A stretch of 64,000 nucleotides of DNA from Minisyncoccota bacterium (GCA_028716825.1 JAQUPA010000001.1:13071-77070), one strand, 5' to 3'; shown: positions 5,353 through 49,225, counted from the first letter of the stretch. Translations and numbers: made by a program. Notes: generated by a model not told the origin, from the letters alone.

Positions 5353-6348
5353 TTAAAAGGCGTTCATAATAACTCCCACTTCTTCTTCCCATTTTGAATT
5401 TCCATTTTTACATTCATAAGTTATTTGGCCACCATCAGAGAGAGTTACTGGTGGATTTTCTCCGAGGTCCCGTTCATAACCACACCACCTTAATCTAAAT
5501 TCTTTTATGCCAGTTAATCTCTTATACATTTCAGTTCCAGCGTTTTTTGTACACGCCCTTATTCCTTCTTCCCAGGAGCCATATCTTTTGCAAGGGAGAC
5601 AGGCTATGCCACAAGGATTATTTGTTCCATAAAGCCCATTGCCCGACTGTAGATTTTGAAGGCCCATACTAGTTTCAGCGTTAGCAATGCCAAGCATAAA
5701 AGTTGGGTTAACGCCGTATTCTTTGCCCGTTTCAACATAGACATTCCCCTTTCCTATTAATGGGCTTTTAGGAAAGTTTGTTTTTAGATAATTTTCAATT
5801 TCCTCAGTCGTGGCTGCATTTGTGTCCCAAATATCAGAAGAGTTCCCACTACTGCTTGAGGGGCTTCCAGAAGAAGGATAATATTTAGACATATATTCTT
5901 CCACCATTTCTTTTAAAGAAGGCCCTTCGTAAACATACTCTTTAACGTTTAGGTCTTTTAATGTTAAAAGATTTGGGTTAATTAGCGCTAAAATTGAAGC
6001 TGAAAACAATATAATTATAAGCCCTAAGATCGCATTTAATACTTGCTCCCTTCCCTTTTCTAGCTTTGTAGGATTTCCAGAAGATGTCATTAATCGAAGC
6101 CCTCCGATTATTAACATTAACATTGCTAAGGCTCCTGCGCTAACTACGGCAAATCTATAAATATAGACAATATAATCAGGAAGAGTAGTTGTTGGGGCCT
6201 TGCCAAAAGCTTCTGGGTACTCAACTTCTGGCTCTATTTGAGCATAGGTTGTTTTAGGAGAGGCTAATTCCAAGAAAGATATAATCGCGATTAAAATCAA
6301 AAAAAAGGTAAAAGTTTTAGTAACTTTTTTGTATATAGATTTTCGCAT
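5353..6348 (-). CDS. VirB2/TrbC-type pilin module fused to a peptidoglycan-hydrolase-like (glucosaminidase/lysozyme-like) domain
   Basis: Signal peptide, then two closely spaced TM helices (YRFAVVSAGALAMLMLIIGGLRL...ILGLIIILFSASILALINPNL), the VirB2/TrbC topology. A Ser-rich linker follows. The C-terminal domain contains GVNPTFMLGIANAETSMG (resembles the glucosaminidase motif) and 6 Cys. Confidence 0.55.
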   Translation of the reverse strand: MRKSIYKKVTKTFTFFLILIAIISFLELASPKTTYAQIEPEVEYPEAFGKAPTTTLPDYIVYIYRFAVVSAGALAMLMLIIGGLRLMTSSGNPTKLEKGREQVLNAILGLIIILFSASILALINPNLLTLKDLNVKEYVYEGPSLKEMVEEYMSKYYPSSGSPSSSSGNSSDIWDTNAATTEEIENYLKTNFPKSPLIGKGNVYVETGKEYGVNPTFMLGIANAETSMGLQNLQSGNGLYGTNNPCGIACLPCKRYGSWEEGIRACTKNAGTEMYKRLTGIKEFRLRWCGYERDLGENPPVTLSDGGQITYECKNGNSKWEEEVGVIMNAF

Positions 6349-6352
6349 TATT

Positions 6353-7540
6353 TTATTTAATACAGGTACATCTTGGCATTATGTCAAGGTGGTCTGGTGC
6401 CGTATAGTAGCCTTTTTCGTATGCATACTCTGCTTCGCAAGCAGAAGTATACCCAAATTTATATCCCTCTAATCTTTTGCAATAATCCATGCAAAAATCA
6501 TGGTTTCCGCTTCTGCATTCAGGAATATTTTCTAAATTATTCTGTCCTTTAAAATAAGCAGCTGTGGTGCCGTCATTCTTACATAGACAAAAAGCAGGGT
6601 TTTTGCCCGAAGCGCTTAATTGAAAAGTTTGCACTGAGCTGAACGAATCTTCATGGGCCTGATAGCAGCTGCAAGCGACTGGATCTCCTCCATCTACATG
6701 ATTAAGTTTGGTACATTCAGAAGGAAGCCCACCTAATGCTCTGTCTTTTGGCGCTATTACTCCGTATACATTTTTATTATCTTTATGGTATTTTTGACAG
6801 AGACCCATGCAAAAGTTACCACAACTATTTGAAAGTCCTCCTTCCCTACCCTGACACTCACAGGTTTCTAAAGGTAGTCCTTCTGTACATTTAAAGTTTT
6901 TAAATTCGTCTGCATCAGGAGGACTACAGAGTGCACGAGTTAATAATTTTGCATATGCGCCTGAACTATTAACAGGAAGATCAAAAGAATTCCCCATACT
7001 TCCTAATTTTCCGAGCATTATTGAATTTGCGATAGCAATACCATTCGCAGTATAGATAAAATTCCCAGCCATTAAATCTTTTTTTATTTTATCTTCTTCG
7101 CCAGCATTACTTAATGTAGGTTCTTTTATGACTACATCTTTCAATCTTACAAGATCCGGGTTGATTGTTCTTAGGACAATATAAATACTAAAAAGAGCAA
7201 GTAGGCCTATAATTGAACGTGTTATTTTATCTCTTGCCGCAGCCTTGAGCTGGGGATTGGCAGCTGCGCCTGACCATTCTATACCGCCGATTATTATCAT
7301 AATTACTGCTAAAAAAGCGCCAACCCAAAAAGAAAATTGATAAACATACTTTATATATTCTGGTAGATTTGGTTCAGGCGGATTCCATGGATAAGTTACC
7401 TCCCAGCCTCCCCAATCTGCTGCAAAAGATAAATTAAAAATAAAAAACAGTGCAAAAACAAAAAGAATAGATAAGGCAAAAATGATTTTATTTCTCTTTT
7501 TCATATTTTTTATTTTATCCCCTATTTTGTTGGAACGCAA
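6353..7540 (-). CDS. VirB2/TrbC-type pilin module fused to a Cys-rich extracytoplasmic domain (paralog of 5353-6348)
   Basis: Same N-terminal architecture (signal peptide, then YQFSFWVGAFLAVIMIIIGGIEW...IIGLLALFSIYIVLRTINPDL). The ~200 aa C-terminal domain has 18 Cys, including CEC, CSC, CLC and CTC pairs. Confidence 0.55.
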   Translation of the reverse strand: MRSNKIGDKIKNMKKRNKIIFALSILFVFALFFIFNLSFAADWGGWEVTYPWNPPEPNLPEYIKYVYQFSFWVGAFLAVIMIIIGGIEWSGAAANPQLKAAARDKITRSIIGLLALFSIYIVLRTINPDLVRLKDVVIKEPTLSNAGEEDKIKKDLMAGNFIYTANGIAIANSIMLGKLGSMGNSFDLPVNSSGAYAKLLTRALCSPPDADEFKNFKCTEGLPLETCECQGREGGLSNSCGNFCMGLCQKYHKDNKNVYGVIAPKDRALGGLPSECTKLNHVDGGDPVACSCYQAHEDSFSSVQTFQLSASGKNPAFCLCKNDGTTAAYFKGQNNLENIPECRSGNHDFCMDYCKRLEGYKFGYTSACEAEYAYEKGYYTAPDHLDIMPRCTCIK

Positions 7541-23731: not shown

Positions 23732-23849
23732 AATTGAGAAGATTGACAGGAAAGAACTTTAAAAATTGAATTTACCCTATTAAATCCCGCAAAGCGGGAG
23801 CGACAAAGTCGCTATTCAATAGGGTAAGATAAGAATTTCTTTGGTGCGA

Positions 23850-26836
<2,987 letters not shown>

Positions 26837-26847
26837 AAGAAGTTCTT

Positions 26848-26913
26848 ATTTCGAGCGAAGCGAGAAAATGCTTCAGCTCCATTTCGAGCGAAGCGAGAAA
26901 ATGCTTCAGCTCC
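26848..26913 (+). repeat. perfect tandem duplication (2 x 33 bp ATTTCGAGCGAAGCGAGAAAATGCTTCAGCTCC) in the 23S-5S spacer
   Basis: Read directly from the sequence. Confidence 0.9.
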
Positions 26914-26944
26914 ATTTAACAAGGTAAATTTTGAGCTCATTATC

Positions 26945-27051
26945 TTGGTGATAATACTGGGCGGGCAATACCTCTTTCCATCCCGAACAGAGAAGTTAAG
27001 TCGTCCAAGGCCGATGATATTGCTTTTGCGAGAAAGTAGGTCGTCGCCAAG
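26945..27051 (+). rRNA. rrf: 5S ribosomal RNA
   Basis: CTTGGTGATAATACTGGGCGGG...CCATCCCGAACAGAGAAGTTAAG...GTCGTCGCCAAG, flanked by the processing-stem inverted repeat GAGCTCATTATC / GATAATGAGCTC. Confidence 0.85.
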
Positions 27052-27073
27052 ATAATGAGCTCAAAGAAGAAAA

Positions 27074-30910: not shown

Positions 30911-30922
30911 TCATAAAAACCC

Positions 30923-30950
30923 TTGACAACAATTTTTATTTCCTTAAAAT
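30923..30950 (+). promoter_or_regulatory. groESL promoter (TTGACA, 16 nt, TAAAAT)
   Basis: TTGACA at 30923-30928 and TAAAAT at 30945-30950. Confidence 0.6.
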
Positions 30951-30956
30951 ACTAGA

Positions 30957-30983
30957 TTAGCAGTCAAAGGTCGAGAGTGCTAA
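30957..30983 (+). promoter_or_regulatory. CIRCE element (HrcA operator)
   Basis: TTAGCAGTC-N9-GAGTGCTAA against the consensus TTAGCACTC-N9-GAGTGCTAA, directly upstream of groES. Confidence 0.85.
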
Positions 30984-31003
30984 TTTAATGAATAAAAATA
31001 ATT

Positions 31004-41269: not shown

Positions 41270-41476
41270 GTCAAGTAAGAAAAGATAAAGGAGGTGGTTC
41301 ATGCGGTCTGAAATACGGCCGCTTTTTTATTTCTGTTTTCAAATATATCTTAGCATCTTATTGACTTTTCAGGAAAATCATTTTATAAAATAAAGTAAGC
41401 ATTTTTAAATTAGTTCCTTAAAATTAAGGGATTTTTATATGTTTTGTAAGGTTGTTCGGAGAAGGGAAAAGAGAAG

Positions 41477-42118
41477 GTGGTGAAAATGAAAAAGTTTTGG
41501 ATTTATTTTGCAATTATAATGTCCGTCCTTTTGATAGGGGGTATTATAATAACTGCTGTTCTTGGCATTCTTGATGATATCTATGCTTGGGCTTGGGTGG
41601 GCCTTGTTATGTTGCTAATAGCAGTATTATTTATAGCGGCATACGGCGAATATATTATATCAGCCATCGGCCTTGTCGATTTGTACTTCTTCTTTGCAAT
41701 GATTTTCAACTTCCAATGGAAATACTTTCTGTATTTCTTAGCAACAAGTGCTATTCTTGTTCTTGTAGCTATTATATACGTATTTCTTAAAGAAATTGGA
41801 TTGGTTGATTTTGAAGAATTCTTTAGTTCCTCTGAAGGAAAAAGTTCTTCAGGGGGTTCTTCAGGGGGTTCTTCAGGAGATTCCTTTATAGGAAGCTCAA
41901 AGAGCAGGAAAGAAAAGGAATATTGCAGAAAGTGTGGAAGCTTTAACCATAGTACCTTTGCACATGGTAGTCATGCAGAAAAGTCTCCAAGCGAATGCAG
42001 GGAATGTGGAAGTCAATACCACATAACTTTGGATCACAAAGAGTGTGGAGTTTGTGAGAGTACAGAGCATGATACTTCAGAACATATACCATTCAGCGGT
42101 AAATTAGAAGGAGATTGA
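41477..42118 (+). CDS. membrane protein with C-terminal triple Cys/His repeat (zinc-ribbon-like)
   Basis: Four to five TM helices, an SSGGSSGGSSG linker, then three repeats CRKCGSFNHSTFAH / CRECGSQYHITLDH / CGVCESTEHDTSEH. ATG 41486 is the likelier start. Confidence 0.55.
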   Translation: MVKMKKFWIYFAIIMSVLLIGGIIITAVLGILDDIYAWAWVGLVMLLIAVLFIAAYGEYIISAIGLVDLYFFFAMIFNFQWKYFLYFLATSAILVLVAIIYVFLKEIGLVDFEEFFSSSEGKSSSGGSSGGSSGDSFIGSSKSRKEKEYCRKCGSFNHSTFAHGSHAEKSPSECRECGSQYHITLDHKECGVCESTEHDTSEHIPFSGKLEGD

Positions 42119-42150
42119 GTCCCTTATGGGCCAAGAGACAATATTAAAAC

Positions 42151-42186
42151 GCGGGAAGTCTAAGGATTTCCCGCCTGTTTTATTTT
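42151..42186 (+). terminator. rho-independent terminator
   Basis: GCGGGAAGTCTAAGGATTTCCCGC hairpin followed by CTGTTTTATTTT. Confidence 0.7.
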
Positions 42187-42246
42187 CAAATATAAAAACA
42201 AGATTATTTATTCCTGAAAGATTTTCGAGATTTGATTTTTTCCGCC

Positions 42247-43025: not shown

Positions 43026-43817
43026 GTGATTTGCTTGTCATTTAACGATAACCACAAACTGGAGCTTGAAAACGATGAGGACTTGGTAAAGCTGGCTCAG
43101 CAAGGAAACGAAGAAGCCCAGCGAGTCTTGTTAGAGCGTTATAAATACATAGCAAGCACGAAAGCAAGTTTGTATTTTCTTCCCGGAGGAGATCAAGACG
43201 ATTTATTCCAGGAAGGGATGATTGGCCTTTTTAAGGCAATTCGCGGTTATCAAGAGGGGCGCGATTCTTCTTTTAAGAGCTTTGCTTTTTTGTGCGTTTC
43301 TCGAAGTATAGTCACAGCACTAATACTAGCAAATCGCCGGAAGCACAAAGCTCTTGATGGTTATTCCTCTTTAGATAAATACGTTAGCCCAGATGGGGAA
43401 GAAGGCAATAACCATTTGCCGGCCAGCTACTTGGAAGATCCAGAAGAGATTTTTATCAACAATATAGAAAGAGAGGAGATGGAGGTCTTCTTACGAGAGA
43501 AGTTGTCACCCTTTGAATTTGCGGTAGTTCAGCTATTTATTCAAGGATTTTCTTACAGGGAAATAGCCAAAAAGCTGGGCATATCCGAAAAGCAGGTTGA
43601 CAATGCTCTCTGTAGAGCGAGGGTTAAGACCAAGCGGTATGCAGAATACATGGACACAAAGGATAAAAAAAAGGAGGTGTTAAAGGTGCCAATTAGCGGA
43701 TACACCATCTTTATGAAAGAGCAGTACAGAAAAGGACTAACAATGGATCAAGCTCTTGAGGCCTATAGAGAGCTATCACCGGAGAAGAAGGAAGTGTTGT
43801 CAAACGAAGCAAAGTAG
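43026..43817 (+). CDS. sigma-70 family sigma factor, SigH (Spo0H)-like, with a ~60 aa C-terminal extension
   Basis: Region 2 DLFQEGMIGLFKAIRGY...SFKSFAFLCVSRSIVTAL and region 4 SYREIAKKLGISEKQVDNALCRARVK, co-linear with Bacillus SigH. GTG 43026 or TTG 43035 start after AGGAGGGGAGGTG. Confidence 0.75.
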   Translation: MICLSFNDNHKLELENDEDLVKLAQQGNEEAQRVLLERYKYIASTKASLYFLPGGDQDDLFQEGMIGLFKAIRGYQEGRDSSFKSFAFLCVSRSIVTALILANRRKHKALDGYSSLDKYVSPDGEEGNNHLPASYLEDPEEIFINNIEREEMEVFLREKLSPFEFAVVQLFIQGFSYREIAKKLGISEKQVDNALCRARVKTKRYAEYMDTKDKKKEVLKVPISGYTIFMKEQYRKGLTMDQALEAYRELSPEKKEVLSNEAK

Positions 43818-43871
43818 ATAAGGGACTCTAATAAGGTTTTTCCTGAAGCTGAAAGAGGAGGTTCAGAACCG

Positions 43872-43988
43872 GTGATACCAGCGTCTCTGGAGGGAGTCTT
43901 CAAATCATTGAAGGTTTTCCTCGAAGAGGAGCTCGAGAGTACCAGGCGCAAGGAGGCAATCCTTACAGGATTGATCGACCTACTTTAG
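43872..43988 (+). CDS. possible 38-aa small ORF
   Basis: GAGGAGG sits 10 nt before GTG. Followed by the terminator at 44012-44039 (GCGGG-A-GTC-GCAA-GAC-C-CCCGC then TTTTT). Weak. Confidence 0.2.
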   Translation: MIPASLEGVFKSLKVFLEEELESTRRKEAILTGLIDLL

Positions 43989-44286
43989 ACATACACAATC
44001 GCAACATGTGGGCGGGAGTCGCAAGACCCCCGCTTTTTCTATTTAAATTAGCAGTCTAAACACTTGACTGCTAAATTTATTTTTTTATAATTAAGTATAT
44101 TTAGTAATTAAACAATTAAAAAATCCTGCATGTAATCTTGATTGCTGGATTTTTAAGAAACCGTTTTTTCTTTAAGTTATCTCTTTTTAAAAGACAACCC
44201 TTAAACAACCTACGCTTTCCGAAAACCAGCAATAAAACGGCTGGTTTTTTTACAAAAGGCCGAATTTTTAAACTATTTCAAAATTT

Positions 44287-44517
44287 ATGATCAAGAAAAA
44301 TTTTCACAGCGTTCCTCAGGGTGATGCTTGGGCAATAAAAAAAGAGGGTGTTGATAGGCCGGTTTCAAAACACAGAACACAGGCCATTGCAGAAGAAAAA
44401 ACTCGTGTTCTTGCTAGAAGGGTTGAAGTAGAAGCAATCTATCATAACAAACAGGGGATTATTAAAGGCAGAGATAGTTATGGAAATGATCCATGTCCAC
44501 CAAAAGACAAAAATTAA
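44287..44517 (+). CDS. DUF2188-family small protein
   Basis: HSVPQGDAWAIKKEG...RDSYGNDPCPPKDK matches the DUF2188 pattern (HVVP..GW.VK.EG ... DSYGNDP.PP). Confidence 0.6.
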   Translation: MIKKNFHSVPQGDAWAIKKEGVDRPVSKHRTQAIAEEKTRVLARRVEVEAIYHNKQGIIKGRDSYGNDPCPPKDKN

Positions 44518-44550
44518 AGGTCACAATATAAACTAACTAAAAATCAAAAT

Positions 44551-44730
44551 ATGGATTTTAATAAGTTTCTTAGTGAAATAAGAAAGAAAGATGGGGAAGA
44601 AACTGCTCGGAGAGCAAATACTCTTGTTAATTTTGAAACCTTAAAAGAGTTGCTTATCCGGAAAGAAATTATTTCAGAAGGAGAATTTAGAAAAGTCAGA
44701 GAAGAAGTTTGTGAAAGGTATAAAAAGTAG
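44551..44730 (+). CDS. 59-aa hypothetical protein (preferred over the antisense ORF 44544-44792)
   Basis: Co-directional with its neighbours. Charged helical peptide MDFNKFLSEIRKKDGEETARRAN... Confidence 0.3.
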   Translation: MDFNKFLSEIRKKDGEETARRANTLVNFETLKELLIRKEIISEGEFRKVREEVCERYKK

Positions 44731-44757
44731 ACAAGATCAAGGATAAAAAACTTAGGC

Positions 44758-45441
44758 ATGAAATGTTTATTTATTGATGAGACAGAATGCAAACAAAGAG
44801 ATCCTAATTTTTTCGGAGTCGGTGGACTTTTTGTTGACTCCTTTTTCTATAAAACCCTAAAAAGATCTTTTAAATCTTGTTTTGAGAGTTTGGGGTGGGA
44901 TGAGAAAAAGGAGCTTAAAGGAAGCTATCTATTTTCTTCACGGAAAGGAGATAAAAATGTGCCGGTGGATAAAAGAATTAAGCTTGTAAGGGAAATTGTT
45001 GATTGTACAAGAGCGAAACAGCGATCACGAATTAATTTTTATTTTACAAGCAACGGGAAAAAGAGAAGTGAAAAAAATTATTTATTCTTATTAAAGAAAA
45101 TAATTAAATCACTTAAAAATTATCCTGATAAAAACGATAAAAATTTAGTAATTATAACAATACATCAGTGTTCTGAATTTAAAGAAAAGAATATCAAAAA
45201 AATAATTAATGAAAATTTGAAGGCAAGACTAGTTTTATTTGAAAAACCCTTTATAATCCACTCAGAAAACGAAGCATGCGGTATGATTATTGTCGATATT
45301 TTAAACTACCTAAAAATGTGGATTGTCCTTAATCCCGAGGAGAAAAGTCAATTAAAATTATTTCCGAGTGTTAACCAAAAAAAATTAGCACAAGTTACAG
45401 AAATATTAGCAACAATTAAAAACATCAAAGATGTAAAATAG
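44758..45441 (+). CDS. hypothetical protein with a DUF3800-like N-terminus
   Basis: N-terminal MKCLFIDETE (the hhhDESG-like start typical of DUF3800). 227 aa. Confidence 0.4.
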   Translation: MKCLFIDETECKQRDPNFFGVGGLFVDSFFYKTLKRSFKSCFESLGWDEKKELKGSYLFSSRKGDKNVPVDKRIKLVREIVDCTRAKQRSRINFYFTSNGKKRSEKNYLFLLKKIIKSLKNYPDKNDKNLVIITIHQCSEFKEKNIKKIINENLKARLVLFEKPFIIHSENEACGMIIVDILNYLKMWIVLNPEEKSQLKLFPSVNQKKLAQVTEILATIKNIKDVK

Positions 45442-45467
45442 GAAATCTAATTTATAAATAAAAATTT

Positions 45468-46091
45468 ATGTCAAAAAATAAAGTAGATAATCCAATAGTA
45501 AAAGTAGACTACGAAGAAGCTAAAAAACTTGCAGATTTAGGTGCTATTGTTCAAGATTTAAGTTTTGTAATGAAAACGTGTTCGCGTCTTGAGAGACTAT
45601 TAAAAGAAAAATCCAAAGACAGTTTGTTAATCGAAAATATGTGGACTGCTGTATTAATAAGATATGCTAGATGTTTCGCAGACGGGAAAAGATTTGGTTT
45701 GTCAGAATCAATATTTGACAATTTAAATGGTGAGCCACATAAAGCGCACAAATTTTATCTTGATTTGAGAGACAAACATATTGCTCATTCTGTAAATCCA
45801 TTTGAGCAAGTGGCGGTAGGACTAATATTGTCTCCGCAGAACATTGAAAGTAAGAAGATAATTAAGGTTGTAACAATGACTATGAGGCATATGATAACAG
45901 ACATTGAGGGAGTTCATCAGCTTGGATGTTTAGCAAAGGTTTTATTAGAGGAAGCATGCAACATAGCCAAGCAATACGAAAAAGAGATATTAAAGAAAGC
46001 TAAAAGTATTCCTATTGATGGTTTATACAATTATCCCAGACTTCGTATGATTGCGCCTGGGCCTGAATCGGCAGATAAACCAAGGTCATAG
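45468..46091 (+). CDS. hypothetical protein
   Basis: 207 aa, no recognisable motif. Adjacent to the DUF3800-like gene. Confidence 0.4.
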   Translation: MSKNKVDNPIVKVDYEEAKKLADLGAIVQDLSFVMKTCSRLERLLKEKSKDSLLIENMWTAVLIRYARCFADGKRFGLSESIFDNLNGEPHKAHKFYLDLRDKHIAHSVNPFEQVAVGLILSPQNIESKKIIKVVTMTMRHMITDIEGVHQLGCLAKVLLEEACNIAKQYEKEILKKAKSIPIDGLYNYPRLRMIAPGPESADKPRS

Positions 46092-46134
46092 TGCAAAAAA
46101 CTAGAAAATTTATTTAATTAAGGAGTAAAAATTT

Positions 46135-46539
46135 ATGAATCAAGATGATTATAATGCAAGAAAAAGAAAAGAAGAATTATTTCATTTATTTAAAGAATCG
46201 GTATTAGGTCGTTTGAATTTCTCAATAATTGTTAGTACATTGTCAGCAACCTTGCTTATAGTTGCAACTTTTAACAAAGAGTTAATTCCGGTTAATGATT
46301 TTACAAAAACTCTTCTTACAATTTTATTATTGCTTATACCGAGTGGATTATTTCTATATCTTTATGAATTAAATCAGACTGGTGTTGATTCAGCAAAAGC
46401 CTTGAAAAAAGAAATTAATGAAGATTTGAAGCAAAGAAAAAAGAATATATTTCTTTGGTTTAGCGTCTATTTTCCGTGGATCGGCCTTGCCATTATATCG
46501 TTTGTTATTTTCTCAATAATTTGGATAATTTGGCGATAG
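46135..46539 (+). CDS. small membrane protein (3 TM helices)
   Basis: Hydrophobicity pattern. RBS AAGGAG before the ATG. Confidence 0.45.
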   Translation: MNQDDYNARKRKEELFHLFKESVLGRLNFSIIVSTLSATLLIVATFNKELIPVNDFTKTLLTILLLLIPSGLFLYLYELNQTGVDSAKALKKEINEDLKQRKKNIFLWFSVYFPWIGLAIISFVIFSIIWIIWR

Positions 46540-46686
46540 GTAAAGGCAAGGATTGCTGAAAATTGAAAAAATAAAATTAGACAGCCAATTTACAAATTTT
46601 TGTTTAAATATTTCCGCGATTTTGTTAGAATGAGTGGGTTAGGAGAATGATGAATCATGAATCACGAATAAAGCGAAAATAAATCT

Positions 46687-46917
46687 ATGAGAAGACAAAA
46701 AATTGGTATTATAATGATTGTTATAGGAGTATTGGGATATATTTATAATCCTTTAATGGATGCCGGGAGTAACTGTGTTCTTGATGGTGGTTGTGGTTTT
46801 GGTTCGGCTATGCCAAGAATACCTTATTTTTTAATTCCGATTTTCTTGATTATTTTAATCATCGGGATTATTCTTGCCGTCATTAAAGAGAAAAACCATG
46901 GCAAAAATGAAAACTAA
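46687..46917 (+). CDS. small membrane protein (2 TM helices) with a GGCGFG motif
   Basis: Hydrophobicity pattern. Confidence 0.4.
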   Translation: MRRQKIGIIMIVIGVLGYIYNPLMDAGSNCVLDGGCGFGSAMPRIPYFLIPIFLIILIIGIILAVIKEKNHGKNEN

Positions 46918-47302
46918 ACTCATTGCGCCGTGCGGGATGAATTGCAATATTTGTATGGCATATTTGCGAGAAAAAAATAAATGCCTTGGCTGTAGATATA
47001 TTACCCCAAAAAATTCTATTTCCCGCGTAAAGTGCAGGATTAAAAATTGCAAAAAGCTTAAAGAGACAAGCTCTGGCTTTTGTTTTTTGTGCAAAGATTT
47101 TCCCTGCAAGAGAATAAAGCATTTGGATAAAAGATACAGAACAAAATACAATATGAGCGAGATTGAAAACCTTTTATATATTAAAAAATTTGGAGTAAGA
47201 AAATTTATACAAAAAGAAAAGAAAAAATGGACCTGCAAAAAATGCGGTGGTACAATCTGTTGTCATAGAGGAGTATGCTTTAGCTGTGGTTCTAAGAAAT
47301 AA
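46898..47302 (+). CDS. Cys-rich DUF3795-like protein
   Basis: MAKMKTKLIAPCGMNCNICMAYLREKNKCLGCR...CRIKNC...CFLCKDFPCKR...CKKCGGTICCHRGVCFSCG. The CG.NC..C.AY...C.GC pattern is typical of DUF3795. Confidence 0.5.
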   Translation: MAKMKTKLIAPCGMNCNICMAYLREKNKCLGCRYITPKNSISRVKCRIKNCKKLKETSSGFCFLCKDFPCKRIKHLDKRYRTKYNMSEIENLLYIKKFGVRKFIQKEKKKWTCKKCGGTICCHRGVCFSCGSKK

Positions 47303-47407: not shown

Positions 47408-47641
47408 ATGGATAGGTATTTCTATACTTTCCGTTACCAGACAATTCCCAGCTGTAAAGATTTTCACCTGTCTGATATTTCTGTCAGAAGTATAAGGGCG
47501 GAAAACGAAGAAGCAGCAATCCAAAGGGCCAAGAAAATGGTCAAGGCCCAGGAAAGAAAGCTGAATAGCGGGTGTAAAATCTTTGAGTGCGATCTTATAC
47601 TGGTCGCCAAAGAGGTCTGGAGAAATCCAGATAATATCTAA
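47408..47641 (+). CDS. small hypothetical protein (high-GC)
   Basis: RBS AAGGAGG before the ATG. Followed by a terminator at 47667-47686 (CCCT-GCAA-AGGG then TTTTTT). Confidence 0.45.
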   Translation: MDRYFYTFRYQTIPSCKDFHLSDISVRSIRAENEEAAIQRAKKMVKAQERKLNSGCKIFECDLILVAKEVWRNPDNI

Positions 47642-47848: not shown

Positions 47849-49225
47849 ATGAGATCAAGAGACATTTTTGACAGTCTTTCGCCGATTGACTATCGATACT
47901 GGGACGAGGAAGTGGCGAGGTATCTCTCCGAGAATGGGTTCACCACTTACAAACTTCTAGTAGAGCTTGCGCTTGCAAAGGTGCTTCATCGTCAAGGTAT
48001 CTGCTCAAAAGCCGCTGTCCAAGAAATCGAGTCGGCTTGTAGTAAGGTGAGGACCGCTGAGGTGTATGACGAAGAAGATCGAATTCGTCACGACATCCGT
48101 GCCCTCGTAAACTGTATCCGCGCCAAGGTGAGCGAGAAAACGAAGCCATACGTTCATATGACGGCAACCTCGTATGACATCGTTGATTCAGCAAACGCTG
48201 TTCGTTACCAGGAGGTCGTTAAGGACGTACTTCTTCCAACACTCATGAACTTGGAAGAGGTTCTCATCGCGATTGCACTTCGCGAAGCCGAGACAGTACA
48301 GGTTGGTAGGACGCACGGCCAGCATGCAGTTCCGATTACTTTCGGATTCGCGATCGCCGGCTATGTGAGTCGCCTGGGCGGGTCAATTGAGAAGTTGAAA
48401 AAGCTTTCTTCTGAGCTTCCTGGGAAGTTCTCGGGAGCAGTCGGAGCATATAATGCTTCGTCGCTTTTCTTCGATGACCCCGAGGACTTTGAGGCCAAAG
48501 TGCTCGCCGAGTTAGACCTTAAGCCAGCTGGGCACTCAACGCAGATTGTGCCACCCGAACCTCTGACTCGGCTTTTCTGCGAAGTTACGATCGCGGCAGG
48601 AGTACTGGCCAACTTGGCCGATGATATGCGGCATCTCCAGCGGACGGAGATCGGAGAGGTGGGTGAGGAGTTTGAAGCGGCGCAGGTTGGATCTTCCACC
48701 ATGCCGCAGAAACGCAATCCCATCAACTTCGAGAACGTTAAGAGCTTATGGGAGATTGTTATGCCCCGCATCGTGACGGTGTTTATGGATCAGATCAGTG
48801 AGCATCAGCGCGACCTTACCAACTCTGCGTCTGCACGGACTTATGGCGAGGTTATCACCTACGTGGTTTCAATGGCAAAGCGCCTGACGCGCACGATGAA
48901 AAAGCTTACAGTTGATCGTGCTAACCTGGAGCGAAACCTTGCCATACAGGAAGGGTTGGTGGTTGCAGAGCCTCTCTATATCATCCTTGCAGCGTTGGGA
49001 CATCCTGATGCCCATGAGAAAGTGAGGATACTCACACTGCAGGCTCAAAGCGAGAAACGGCCGCTCCAAGAGGTTTTTGCCGATGACACAGAGATGAAAG
49101 TGTATCTTGAGAAGATGACGCCATATCAACGGCAGATCCTTTCAGATCCGTCTCTCTACATCGGCATTGCTGCAAAGAAAGCAAGAGATGTCGCAGAACA
49201 TTGGAAGCAAAGGTTAGGAGGTTGA
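47849..49225 (+). CDS. purB: adenylosuccinate lyase
   Basis: 458 aa, fumarate-lyase superfamily (GSSTMPQKRNP). GC about 52%, far above the background. RBS TAGGAGG. Confidence 0.85.
   Translation: MRSRDIFDSLSPIDYRYWDEEVARYLSENGFTTYKLLVELALAKVLHRQGICSKAAVQEIESACSKVRTAEVYDEEDRIRHDIRALVNCIRAKVSEKTKPYVHMTATSYDIVDSANAVRYQEVVKDVLLPTLMNLEEVLIAIALREAETVQVGRTHGQHAVPITFGFAIAGYVSRLGGSIEKLKKLSSELPGKFSGAVGAYNASSLFFDDPEDFEAKVLAELDLKPAGHSTQIVPPEPLTRLFCEVTIAAGVLANLADDMRHLQRTEIGEVGEEFEAAQVGSSTMPQKRNPINFENVKSLWEIVMPRIVTVFMDQISEHQRDLTNSASARTYGEVITYVVSMAKRLTRTMKKLTVDRANLERNLAIQEGLVVAEPLYIILAALGHPDAHEKVRILTLQAQSEKRPLQEVFADDTEMKVYLEKMTPYQRQILSDPSLYIGIAAKKARDVAEHWKQRLGG

Follow-up and report, generated by a model that had tools for sequence, protein, structure and literature searches.

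A putative defence-type, strain-variable gene slot in a Candidatus Pacebacteria genome

Defence islands, and hot spots of variable gene content that lie between conserved core genes, are well known from the genomes of enterobacteria and Pseudomonas and from phage satellites. The bacteria of the candidate phyla radiation (CPR, or Patescibacteria) have tiny genomes and, to our knowledge, few recognised anti-phage systems. We here deal with a gene slot in a metagenome-assembled genome (MAG) of Candidatus Pacebacteria, a member of this radiation. The analysed stretch, called the window, comprises 64,000 nt, and its coordinates are used throughout. Between 44287 and 47302 it contains, on the plus strand, seven co-directional open reading frames (ORFs), all of which are annotated genes (PHI88_00310 to PHI88_00340). 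An initial annotation had described them as an accessory, defence-like cluster of seven short co-directional genes, and this count and arrangement were borne out. The segment 44302–46902 has no counterpart in a near-identical strain, and relatives carry other genes in its place. With moderate confidence, we read it as a defence-type strain-variable slot, the genes of which would be independently mobile and have separate single-gene roles.

The protein families to be considered are not new to the field. DUF3800 is an RNase H2-like domain that has been reported from type VII retrons, from the vicinity of Cas12a2/a3 and from the Cas13 CASK loci (PMC7736814, PMC10910872, PMC13594972); none of these roles has a known mechanism. 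Its motifs are an N-terminal D-E and a C-terminal QxxD (PMC7736814), and structured RNAs have been reported near DUF3800 genes. HEPN proteins are characterised by an Rx4-6H motif the Arg of which is followed by a polar residue, by a four-helix up-down core in which this motif sits where helix 3 ends or the next loop begins, and by an insert between helices 2 and 3; a beta-hairpin after the motif has been reported for Csx1 only (Anantharaman et al., PMC3710099). The literature, finally, connects DUF2188 with defence and with operons of that kind. Variable slots for defence genes are a known kind, and so are DUF3800, DUF2188 and HEPN proteins. What goes beyond routine is the CPR setting, a clean slot with three alleles behind a conserved promoter and leader, and a HEPN-like family that is large, uncurated and without a detectable structural relative.

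The slot became evident from two relatives. One is a near-identical strain from another sample (L140), the flank proteins of which are 94–100% identical to those of the window; the other (L141) is more distant, with a protein identity of 61–83%. The blastn segments against L140 end at window position 44301 and restart at 46903, and the alignments span both junctions. On the left, the homology covers a sigma-factor gene, its terminator, a promoter-like site and a leader, and ends 15 nt into the ORF of a DUF2188 protein; on the right, it restarts 4 nt before the start codon of a DUF3795 gene. In between, L140 holds 2,936 bp of other genes, which encode a 212-aa protein with a weak DUF5677 match, a DUF2130 protein and a 308-aa protein. 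In L141, the genes ahead of the same DUF3795 gene are those of an RNase H (RVT_3/RNase_H), of a zinc-ribbon-like protein of 54 aa and of a DUF4145 protein. The DUF4145 protein belongs to a HEPN family and matches PD-T7-4 of PADLOC with an expectation value (E) of 5e-12. Because L140 and L141 hold other genes between the same borders, 44302–46902 is the cargo of a variable slot: the flanks are the same, the relatives are close, and the cargo differs. Apart from three places, L140 is collinear with the window. The Logan contig L001 corresponds to window 43980–46996, and L142 stops shortly behind the sigma gene. The slot borders are, thus, the places where independent assemblies made from the source sample break, which fits co-existing variants. 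The search for boundary repeats or attachment (att) sites at the slot yielded AT-rich noise only, and the ORF list and the Pfam and PHROGs scans revealed no integrase, transposase or phage structural gene in or beside the cargo of the window. Since neither an integrase nor boundary repeats were found, the cargo is likely exchanged by homologous recombination in the flanks.

The right border is formed by PHI88_00340 (46907–47302, plus strand), which encodes a Cys-rich protein of 131 residues. It matches DUF3795 (PF12675) with 31.7 bits versus a cut-off of 22.6 (E 2e-7), is named DUF3795 domain-containing protein at NCBI, and has its annotated start at 46907, not 46874. The protein is 94.7% identical in L140 and 83% identical in L141, with differing cargo upstream, and has 90%-identity relatives on other contigs. 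Being conserved in relatives with different cargo, it is backbone and not cargo. The initial annotation, accordingly, was right about the family but not about its membership in the cluster, and the accessory nature of the cluster stands, strongly, for 44302–46902 but not for the DUF3795 gene. The next gene, PHI88_00345 (47408–47641, plus strand, 77 aa), also belongs to the backbone. It pairs with the DUF3795 gene in relatives: 90% clusters of the two proteins share contigs, the pair is seen in a further contig (L143), and the DNA is conserved in L140.

This leaves six genes as cargo, all of them intact ORFs. The GC content of the seven-gene region, 31.2%, is under the window mean of 35.1% and does not fall into the intermediate range of 35–40% first ascribed to it. 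Nor does each gene have its own Shine-Dalgarno (SD) sequence, as had been proposed. A clear one (AAGGAG) precedes only the gene of a 134-aa membrane protein, and a weak one that of a 227-aa protein; the remaining five of the seven genes have none within 20 nt upstream. Backbone genes carry AAGGAGG. The gaps are 26 nt between the 227-aa and 207-aa genes and 43 nt between the 207-aa and 134-aa genes, and such spacing suggests that the six cargo genes are transcribed together. The start context AAAATTTATG is common to the DUF2188, 207-aa and 134-aa genes (44277–44289, 45458–45470 and 46125–46137); its recurrence may be accidental, the DNA being AT-rich, or the genes may have an initiation context in common. 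When eight local proteins were scanned against Pfam, PADLOC, NCBIfam and PHROGs, matches were limited to DUF2188/PDC-S16, DUF3795 and phrog_3220.

The first cargo gene, PHI88_00310 (44287..44517, plus strand), encodes a 76-aa DUF2188 protein, as had been surmised. It scores 48.5 bits against PF09954, where the cut-off is 22 (E 1e-12). It also matches the models of the PADLOC candidate PDC-S16 over the full length (E 7e-23) and the phage family phrog_3220 (E 6e-17).

The third gene, PHI88_00320 (44758..45441, plus strand), encodes the 227-aa protein, which belongs to a divergent DUF3800 clade and has an RNase HII-like predicted fold. Its relationship to DUF3800 had been claimed before, and the claim holds in a transitive sense only. 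The window protein itself does not match PF12686 at E <= 0.1, nor at E <= 1. Of 46 aligned family members, however, 15 do match PF12686 (best E 7e-8), and the profile search returned proteins with a precomputed PF12686 assignment; for one of its hits (P0128), the name in UniRef is DUF3800 domain protein. A word-indexed search found a single homologue, and an exhaustive profile search 134 representatives. The residues D7, E8, E52, K54 and D180 are invariant in the family alignment. In the AlphaFold2 model (predicted local distance difference test, pLDDT, 84; predicted template modelling score, pTM, 0.85), the order of elements is beta-beta-alpha-beta-alpha-beta-alpha, strand 1 bearing D7 and E8, and a late helix D180. 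The best Foldseek matches in the PDB are archaeal RNases HII, 2dff and 1eke (E 2e-4 and 6e-4, probability 0.99–1.0), followed by human RNase H2 (3puf), which agrees with the RNase H2-like nature of DUF3800 given in the literature. The Q of QxxD is missing, the sequence there being MIIVD; this Q is likewise absent from the DUF3800 of type VII retrons in the literature. Rfam searches of the locus, at the gathering threshold or at E <= 1, revealed none of the DUF3800-associated RNA motifs. The family has no match in viral or phage collections, and the 227-aa protein none in plasmids.

The fourth gene, PHI88_00325 (45468..46091, plus strand), encodes the 207-aa protein. It is without a match in Pfam, NCBIfam or PADLOC and without a significant one in PHROGs, and yet its family is large. 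There are more than 299 homologues with 45–76% identity in many phyla including archaea, among them Patescibacteria, Desulfuromonadales, Gallionella, Planctomycetota, Stahlbacteria, Dehalococcoidia and Bathyarchaeia; more distant ones occur in many actinomycetes. Across phyla, 10 columns are invariant (R75, H94, R101 and H107 included) and 37 near-invariant, and such conservation indicates that the family is under strong purifying selection. R101 and H107 are found in all of 58 sequences, and position 102 is occupied by D in 31 of them and by N in 26. The local consensus, L-R-[D/N]-K-H-[I/V]-A-H-S-V-N-P, contains the motif R101-[D/N]-K-H-x-A-H107, that is, an Rx4-6H with a polar residue after the Arg, as in HEPN proteins. 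In the model (pLDDT 90.7), four long helices are seen, the second and third of which are separated by a short insert; the motif lies where helix 3 ends and is followed by a beta-hairpin insert and then by helix 4. A profile search of the PDB with the family found nothing. Among the repeated weak Pfam matches of its relatives, HEPN_AbiU2 (PF18734) is the sole biologically coherent family. An hhalign comparison with an AbiU2 protein aligned just the motifs, FRHKYIGH with LRDKHIAH; single-sequence runs were otherwise uninformative. The AbiU2 protein of one DUF3800-like locus (L054) has no relatives in plasmids or viral contigs. Taken together, we consider it about an even call that the 207-aa protein is a HEPN protein. 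If so, it would be expected to cleave RNA without a metal, in an Arg- and His-dependent manner.

As to its distribution, the 207-aa family was not found in viral or phage collections, and the protein has three weak matches on actinobacterial plasmids. The commonest neighbours of the family are DDE transposases. In a Desulfatiglandales MAG (L029, 6191–10879), a member lies together with the gene of a 119-aa membrane protein between two identical 516-aa transposase genes, an arrangement that resembles a composite transposon.

Three cargo genes are left. PHI88_00315 (44551..44730, gene 2) encodes a charged, soluble 59-aa protein; PHI88_00330 (46135..46539, gene 5) a 134-aa membrane protein with about three transmembrane (TM) segments and, unlike the other cargo, a clear SD; PHI88_00335 (46687..46917, gene 6) a 76-aa membrane protein with two TM segments, the gene of which overlaps the DUF3795 start by 11 nt. 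All are on the plus strand. Hydropathy, thus, yields two membrane proteins instead of the three expected, the 59-aa protein being the one that had been miscounted. None of these proteins has a family match in Pfam, PADLOC, NCBIfam or PHROGs, each is a singleton 90% cluster, and PHI88_00335 is absent from L140 and L141.

On the left, the slot lies downstream of the gene of a SigH-like sigma factor. Its terminator, a hairpin at 44009..44040 on the plus strand (GGGCGGGAGTC-GCAA-GACCCCCGC followed by a T-run), lies in the conserved flank, within a stretch common to L140 at 93.9% identity. The fold of 43985–44050 has -17.6 kcal/mol (z = -3.07). The terminator proposed at 44.04 kb is, therefore, real, and it belongs to the sigma-factor gene. 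It is followed, still in the conserved flank, by a promoter-like site at 44064..44091 (plus strand, TTGACT-16-TATAAT, 11 of 12 matches), the counterpart of which in L140 and L141 is a repeated promoter-plus-hairpin unit. This unit is an element of about 63 bp, TTGACA-17-TAAAAT and then a hairpin ATTAGCA...TGCTAAT, found at window 30922–30984, L140 5301–5362 and L141 1–30. In L140 and L141 it stands just upstream of the slot; the copy of the window, at about 44064–44124, has diverged. Then comes a leader of about 165 nt (44092..44258, plus strand) with three predicted hairpins, the last of which is terminator-like (CCAGC...GCUGG then U7). It folds with -31.6 kcal/mol (z = -3.17), and none of 200 shuffled sequences was as stable. 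The leader has no Rfam match, is conserved in the flank of L140 and is not conserved near other DUF3800-like genes. Ahead of the cargo, it may serve as an attenuator or as a small RNA. The sigma ORF itself stops at an in-frame TAG (43815–43817) after 263 aa, and the L140 orthologue, which aligns in one frame with window 43026–43985 at 94% identity, runs to 320 aa. The stop, a nonsense change or a strain difference, cuts the C-terminal tail short.

How the cargo families behave elsewhere was surveyed by clustering the neighbouring ORFs of related loci: 51 genome loci for the 207-aa family and, for the DUF3800-like family, 80 metagenome loci plus 3 others, i.e., 83. In neither set does a window protein other than the query recur, and none of the neighbours in the 83 loci matches the 207-aa profile or the 134-aa protein. 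The 51 loci show neither a conserved neighbour nor a DUF3800-like gene; members of the 207-aa family stand alone, in contexts that are unrelated. Next to the DUF3800-like genes, those that recur are HsdM, HsdS and HsdR of type I restriction-modification (R-M) systems, Eco57I/MmeI-type enzymes, DpnI and Schlafen/AlbA_2; HEPN families are not among the top ones. Of the 45 DUF3800-like loci with at least 2 kb of flank, at least 13 have R-M genes at a distance of up to 3 kb. Because each family occurs elsewhere without the others, the cargo is not a conserved system. The trio 44758–46539 (227-aa, 207-aa and 134-aa genes), which the initial annotation had put forward as a defence or abortive-infection (Abi) module, had to be rejected as a conserved module, since its members do not co-occur in the 83 and 51 related loci. 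The broader idea of a defence-like array survives by association: with PDC-S16, with the R-M neighbours in at least 13 of 45 loci, and with PD-T7-4 in L141.

DUF2130 was seen twice beside RNase H-fold candidates, in L056 (4055–11403) and in the L140 slot (6197–7462). In L056, its gene comes after that of an N6_N4 methylase and has a DUF3800-like gene on one side and a ResIII/restriction endonuclease gene on the other. The 308-aa protein of L140 (7510–8436) contains IYHDES...YFDG...FIDNIISAW, the same order as the D-E/D/D of the DUF3800-like family; no search supports homology. The DUF5677 match of the 212-aa protein (5528–6166) is sub-threshold. Attempts to assign these two proteins to families ended without statistical support.

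The slot is delimited by the conserved promoter and leader on one side and by the conserved DUF3795 gene on the other, with relatives holding other cargo between the same borders. In the model that we favour, the resident promoter and leader would drive whatever cargo is present. The present cargo would be a mosaic of six small genes, at least three of them from families tied to anti-phage defence or toxin functions. Most likely, the nucleases among them would work separately, as single-gene abortive-infection or toxin-type enzymes. The DUF3800-like protein, if still active, would cut RNA or RNA-DNA hybrids by means of a D-E...D...D site, in which the third carboxylate is replaced by His; the HEPN-like 207-aa protein would be a metal-independent RNase; and the DUF2188 protein would be a defence candidate alongside.

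A number of observations weigh against this reading. Three of the six cargo proteins are orphans, just two other slot alleles were seen, and joint transcription is read from the spacing. Cargo related to a validated defence system is the PD-T7-4 homologue of the L141 allele; the window allele has PDC-S16, which is a candidate only and for which a published test was not found in the literature. For the 207-aa model, Foldseek found no significant match in the PDB or BFVD. HEPN_AbiU2 remained sub-threshold in its relatives, with 4 of 58 at E ~0.045 and 1 of 20 at E 0.004, and next to members of the family one mostly finds housekeeping genes and transposases rather than defence genes. In the DUF3800-like protein, residue 136 is His (codon CAT), whereas 45 of 46 relatives have Asp there. 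The residue is placed at the end of strand 4 in the model, a position from which it would be catalytic, and the carboxylate set of an RNase H-like nuclease is, thus, incomplete. Because H136 replaces a near-invariant Asp, this copy may be impaired, altered or inactive.

H136 is also an argument for seeing the cargo as something other than defence, namely as drifting, horizontally acquired selfish or junk DNA, for instance mobile-element remnants or lone toxin-like genes that transposons spread, of no benefit to the host and partly decayed. The missing SD in five of seven genes, as compared to AAGGAGG on backbone genes, the GC content of 31% versus 35% and the three orphan proteins point the same way, and so do the transposases as commonest neighbours of the 207-aa family, the L029 gene between two identical transposase genes and the match of DUF2188 to phage protein families. 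The six ORFs, however, are intact, the 207-aa family appears to be under strong purifying selection, and the DUF3800-like family is embedded in R-M operons. Furthermore, the slot of a relative holds a homologue of the validated system PD-T7-4, and in or beside the cargo of the window there is no integrase, transposase or phage structural gene. We regard junk DNA as a rather unlikely explanation.

Another possibility is a joint action of two nucleases, one with an RNase H fold and the other a HEPN RNase, in which case the slot would swap non-orthologous versions of such a pair: DUF3800-like plus 207-aa in the window, RNase H plus DUF4145 in L141, DUF3800-like plus AbiU2 in L054. The DUF3800-like and 207-aa genes of the window are indeed adjacent, and the L141 slot combines RNase_H/RVT_3, the 54-aa protein and DUF4145, a HEPN family. 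In L054/L055, a DUF3800-like gene is followed by HEPN_AbiU2, and in L002 a HEPN-like fragment lies beside one. HEPN proteins fused to or adjoining RNase H-fold domains have been documented (PMC3710099), and the 308-aa protein of L140 shows the DES...D...D pattern in the same order. Yet this amounts to about four cases only, and because HEPN genes are common in defence islands, adjacency by chance is plausible. Most DUF3800-like loci lack a Pfam-detectable HEPN neighbour, the 207-aa family normally occurs solo, the L140 assignments are without statistical support, and H136 may inactivate the RNase H-fold partner. Acting in pairs is quite improbable in our judgement.

A combined version may be mentioned. 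The 207-aa proteins would form an unnamed family of solitary HEPN-like nucleases that spreads alone, sometimes by transposons, across bacterial phyla and archaea, and the slot would exchange non-orthologous RNase H-fold/HEPN pairs, the 308-aa and 212-aa proteins of L140 being perhaps a third one. As a whole, this is doubtful.

That the DUF3800-like, 207-aa and 134-aa genes are one obligate three-gene Abi system, with sensor or nuclease components and a membrane effector, is very unlikely, as no 207-aa or 134-aa match is among the neighbours in 83 DUF3800-like loci, the 51 loci of the 207-aa family have neither a conserved neighbour nor a DUF3800-like gene, HEPN is not among the top neighbour families and the 134-aa protein is a singleton, all of which counts against the tight co-directional spacing (gaps of 26 and 43 nt), the HEPN_AbiU2 gene directly downstream of the DUF3800-like gene in L054/L055 and the Ymh-like HEPN fragment upstream of one in L002.

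Beyond the slot, the surroundings show further differences between strains. The segment 47707–49314 contains a gene (47849–49225) of the lyase family, adenylosuccinate-lyase-like, with 51% GC in a window of 35% GC. It is missing in L140 and L143, where the DUF3795 and 77-aa genes abut pyruvate:ferredoxin oxidoreductase genes, and looks like a separate recent insertion. Upstream of the slot, 884 bp (41333–42216, gene 41477–42118) are missing from L140; the protein that they encode has 213 aa, several TM segments and a tail rich in Cys and His. They are a third strain-specific insertion within 8 kb. At 23845–27052, there is a 23S-5S ribosomal RNA pair with no adjacent 16S in the window; the 23S match comprises 2,991 nt, as compared to 2,925 positions of the model.

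What does the favoured slot reading mean? A sharply bounded slot that differs between near-identical strains, and that would contain nucleases of the defence type, is a concrete place to seek immune genes of CPR bacteria. Uncurated as it is, the 207-aa family has many members in a wide range of phyla; should they be HEPN RNases, a further solitary toxin or Abi family would be gained. If the pair reading were true, a recurrent two-nuclease defence design would exist in CPR bacteria. Finally, small genes that stand close together in a slot of this kind are not, for that reason, a single system, which matters for the automated discovery of defence systems.

It remains to compare the locus with its closest relatives in the literature. 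With the DUF3800 proteins of defence systems, i.e., the type VII retron effector, the TPR-DUF3800 of Cas12a2/a3 and Csx32 of CASK, the 227-aa protein has in common the D-E motif, the C-terminal Asp, the predicted RNase HII-like fold and the association with defence loci. It differs in falling below the Pfam model, in belonging to a small clade of about 134 representatives and in standing alone, without reverse transcriptase, TPR domain or Cas partner; in addition, the Q of QxxD is gone, the third carboxylate is His and the associated RNA motif was not detected.

The 207-aa protein resembles HEPN proteins, AbiU2 (PF18734) in particular, in its Rx5H, the polar residue after the Arg, the single-gene lifestyle and the weak AbiU2 matches; going by the model, it may do so also in the four long helices, the insert between helices 2 and 3 and the place of the motif where helix 3 ends. 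Different are the lack of a significant sequence or structure match to any HEPN family, the beta-hairpin after the motif, otherwise reported for Csx1 only, a context of transposases and housekeeping genes instead of R-M, and an unusually high conservation across phyla. RNase H-fold and HEPN-like genes stand side by side in the window, L054 and L141, as in RNase LS/RnlA and NamA-HEPN (PMC3710099); here, however, other families are involved, the two are not fused, and in neither family is the pairing conserved throughout. With PDC-S16, a single-gene DUF2188 candidate, the window protein shares the full-length match given above (E 7e-23), but PDC-S16 is a candidate only and DUF2188 also occurs in phage protein families.

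From the hot spots mentioned at the beginning, the slot differs in its small-genome CPR/Patescibacteria host, in its tiny size of 2.6–2.9 kb with three alleles seen, in the position of the cargo behind a conserved promoter and leader with break points at start codons, and in that this cargo is unvalidated. Like them, it has conserved flanks and sharply bounded, non-homologous cargo in near-identical strains, manages without a dedicated integrase, and is filled from families linked to R-M or Abi.

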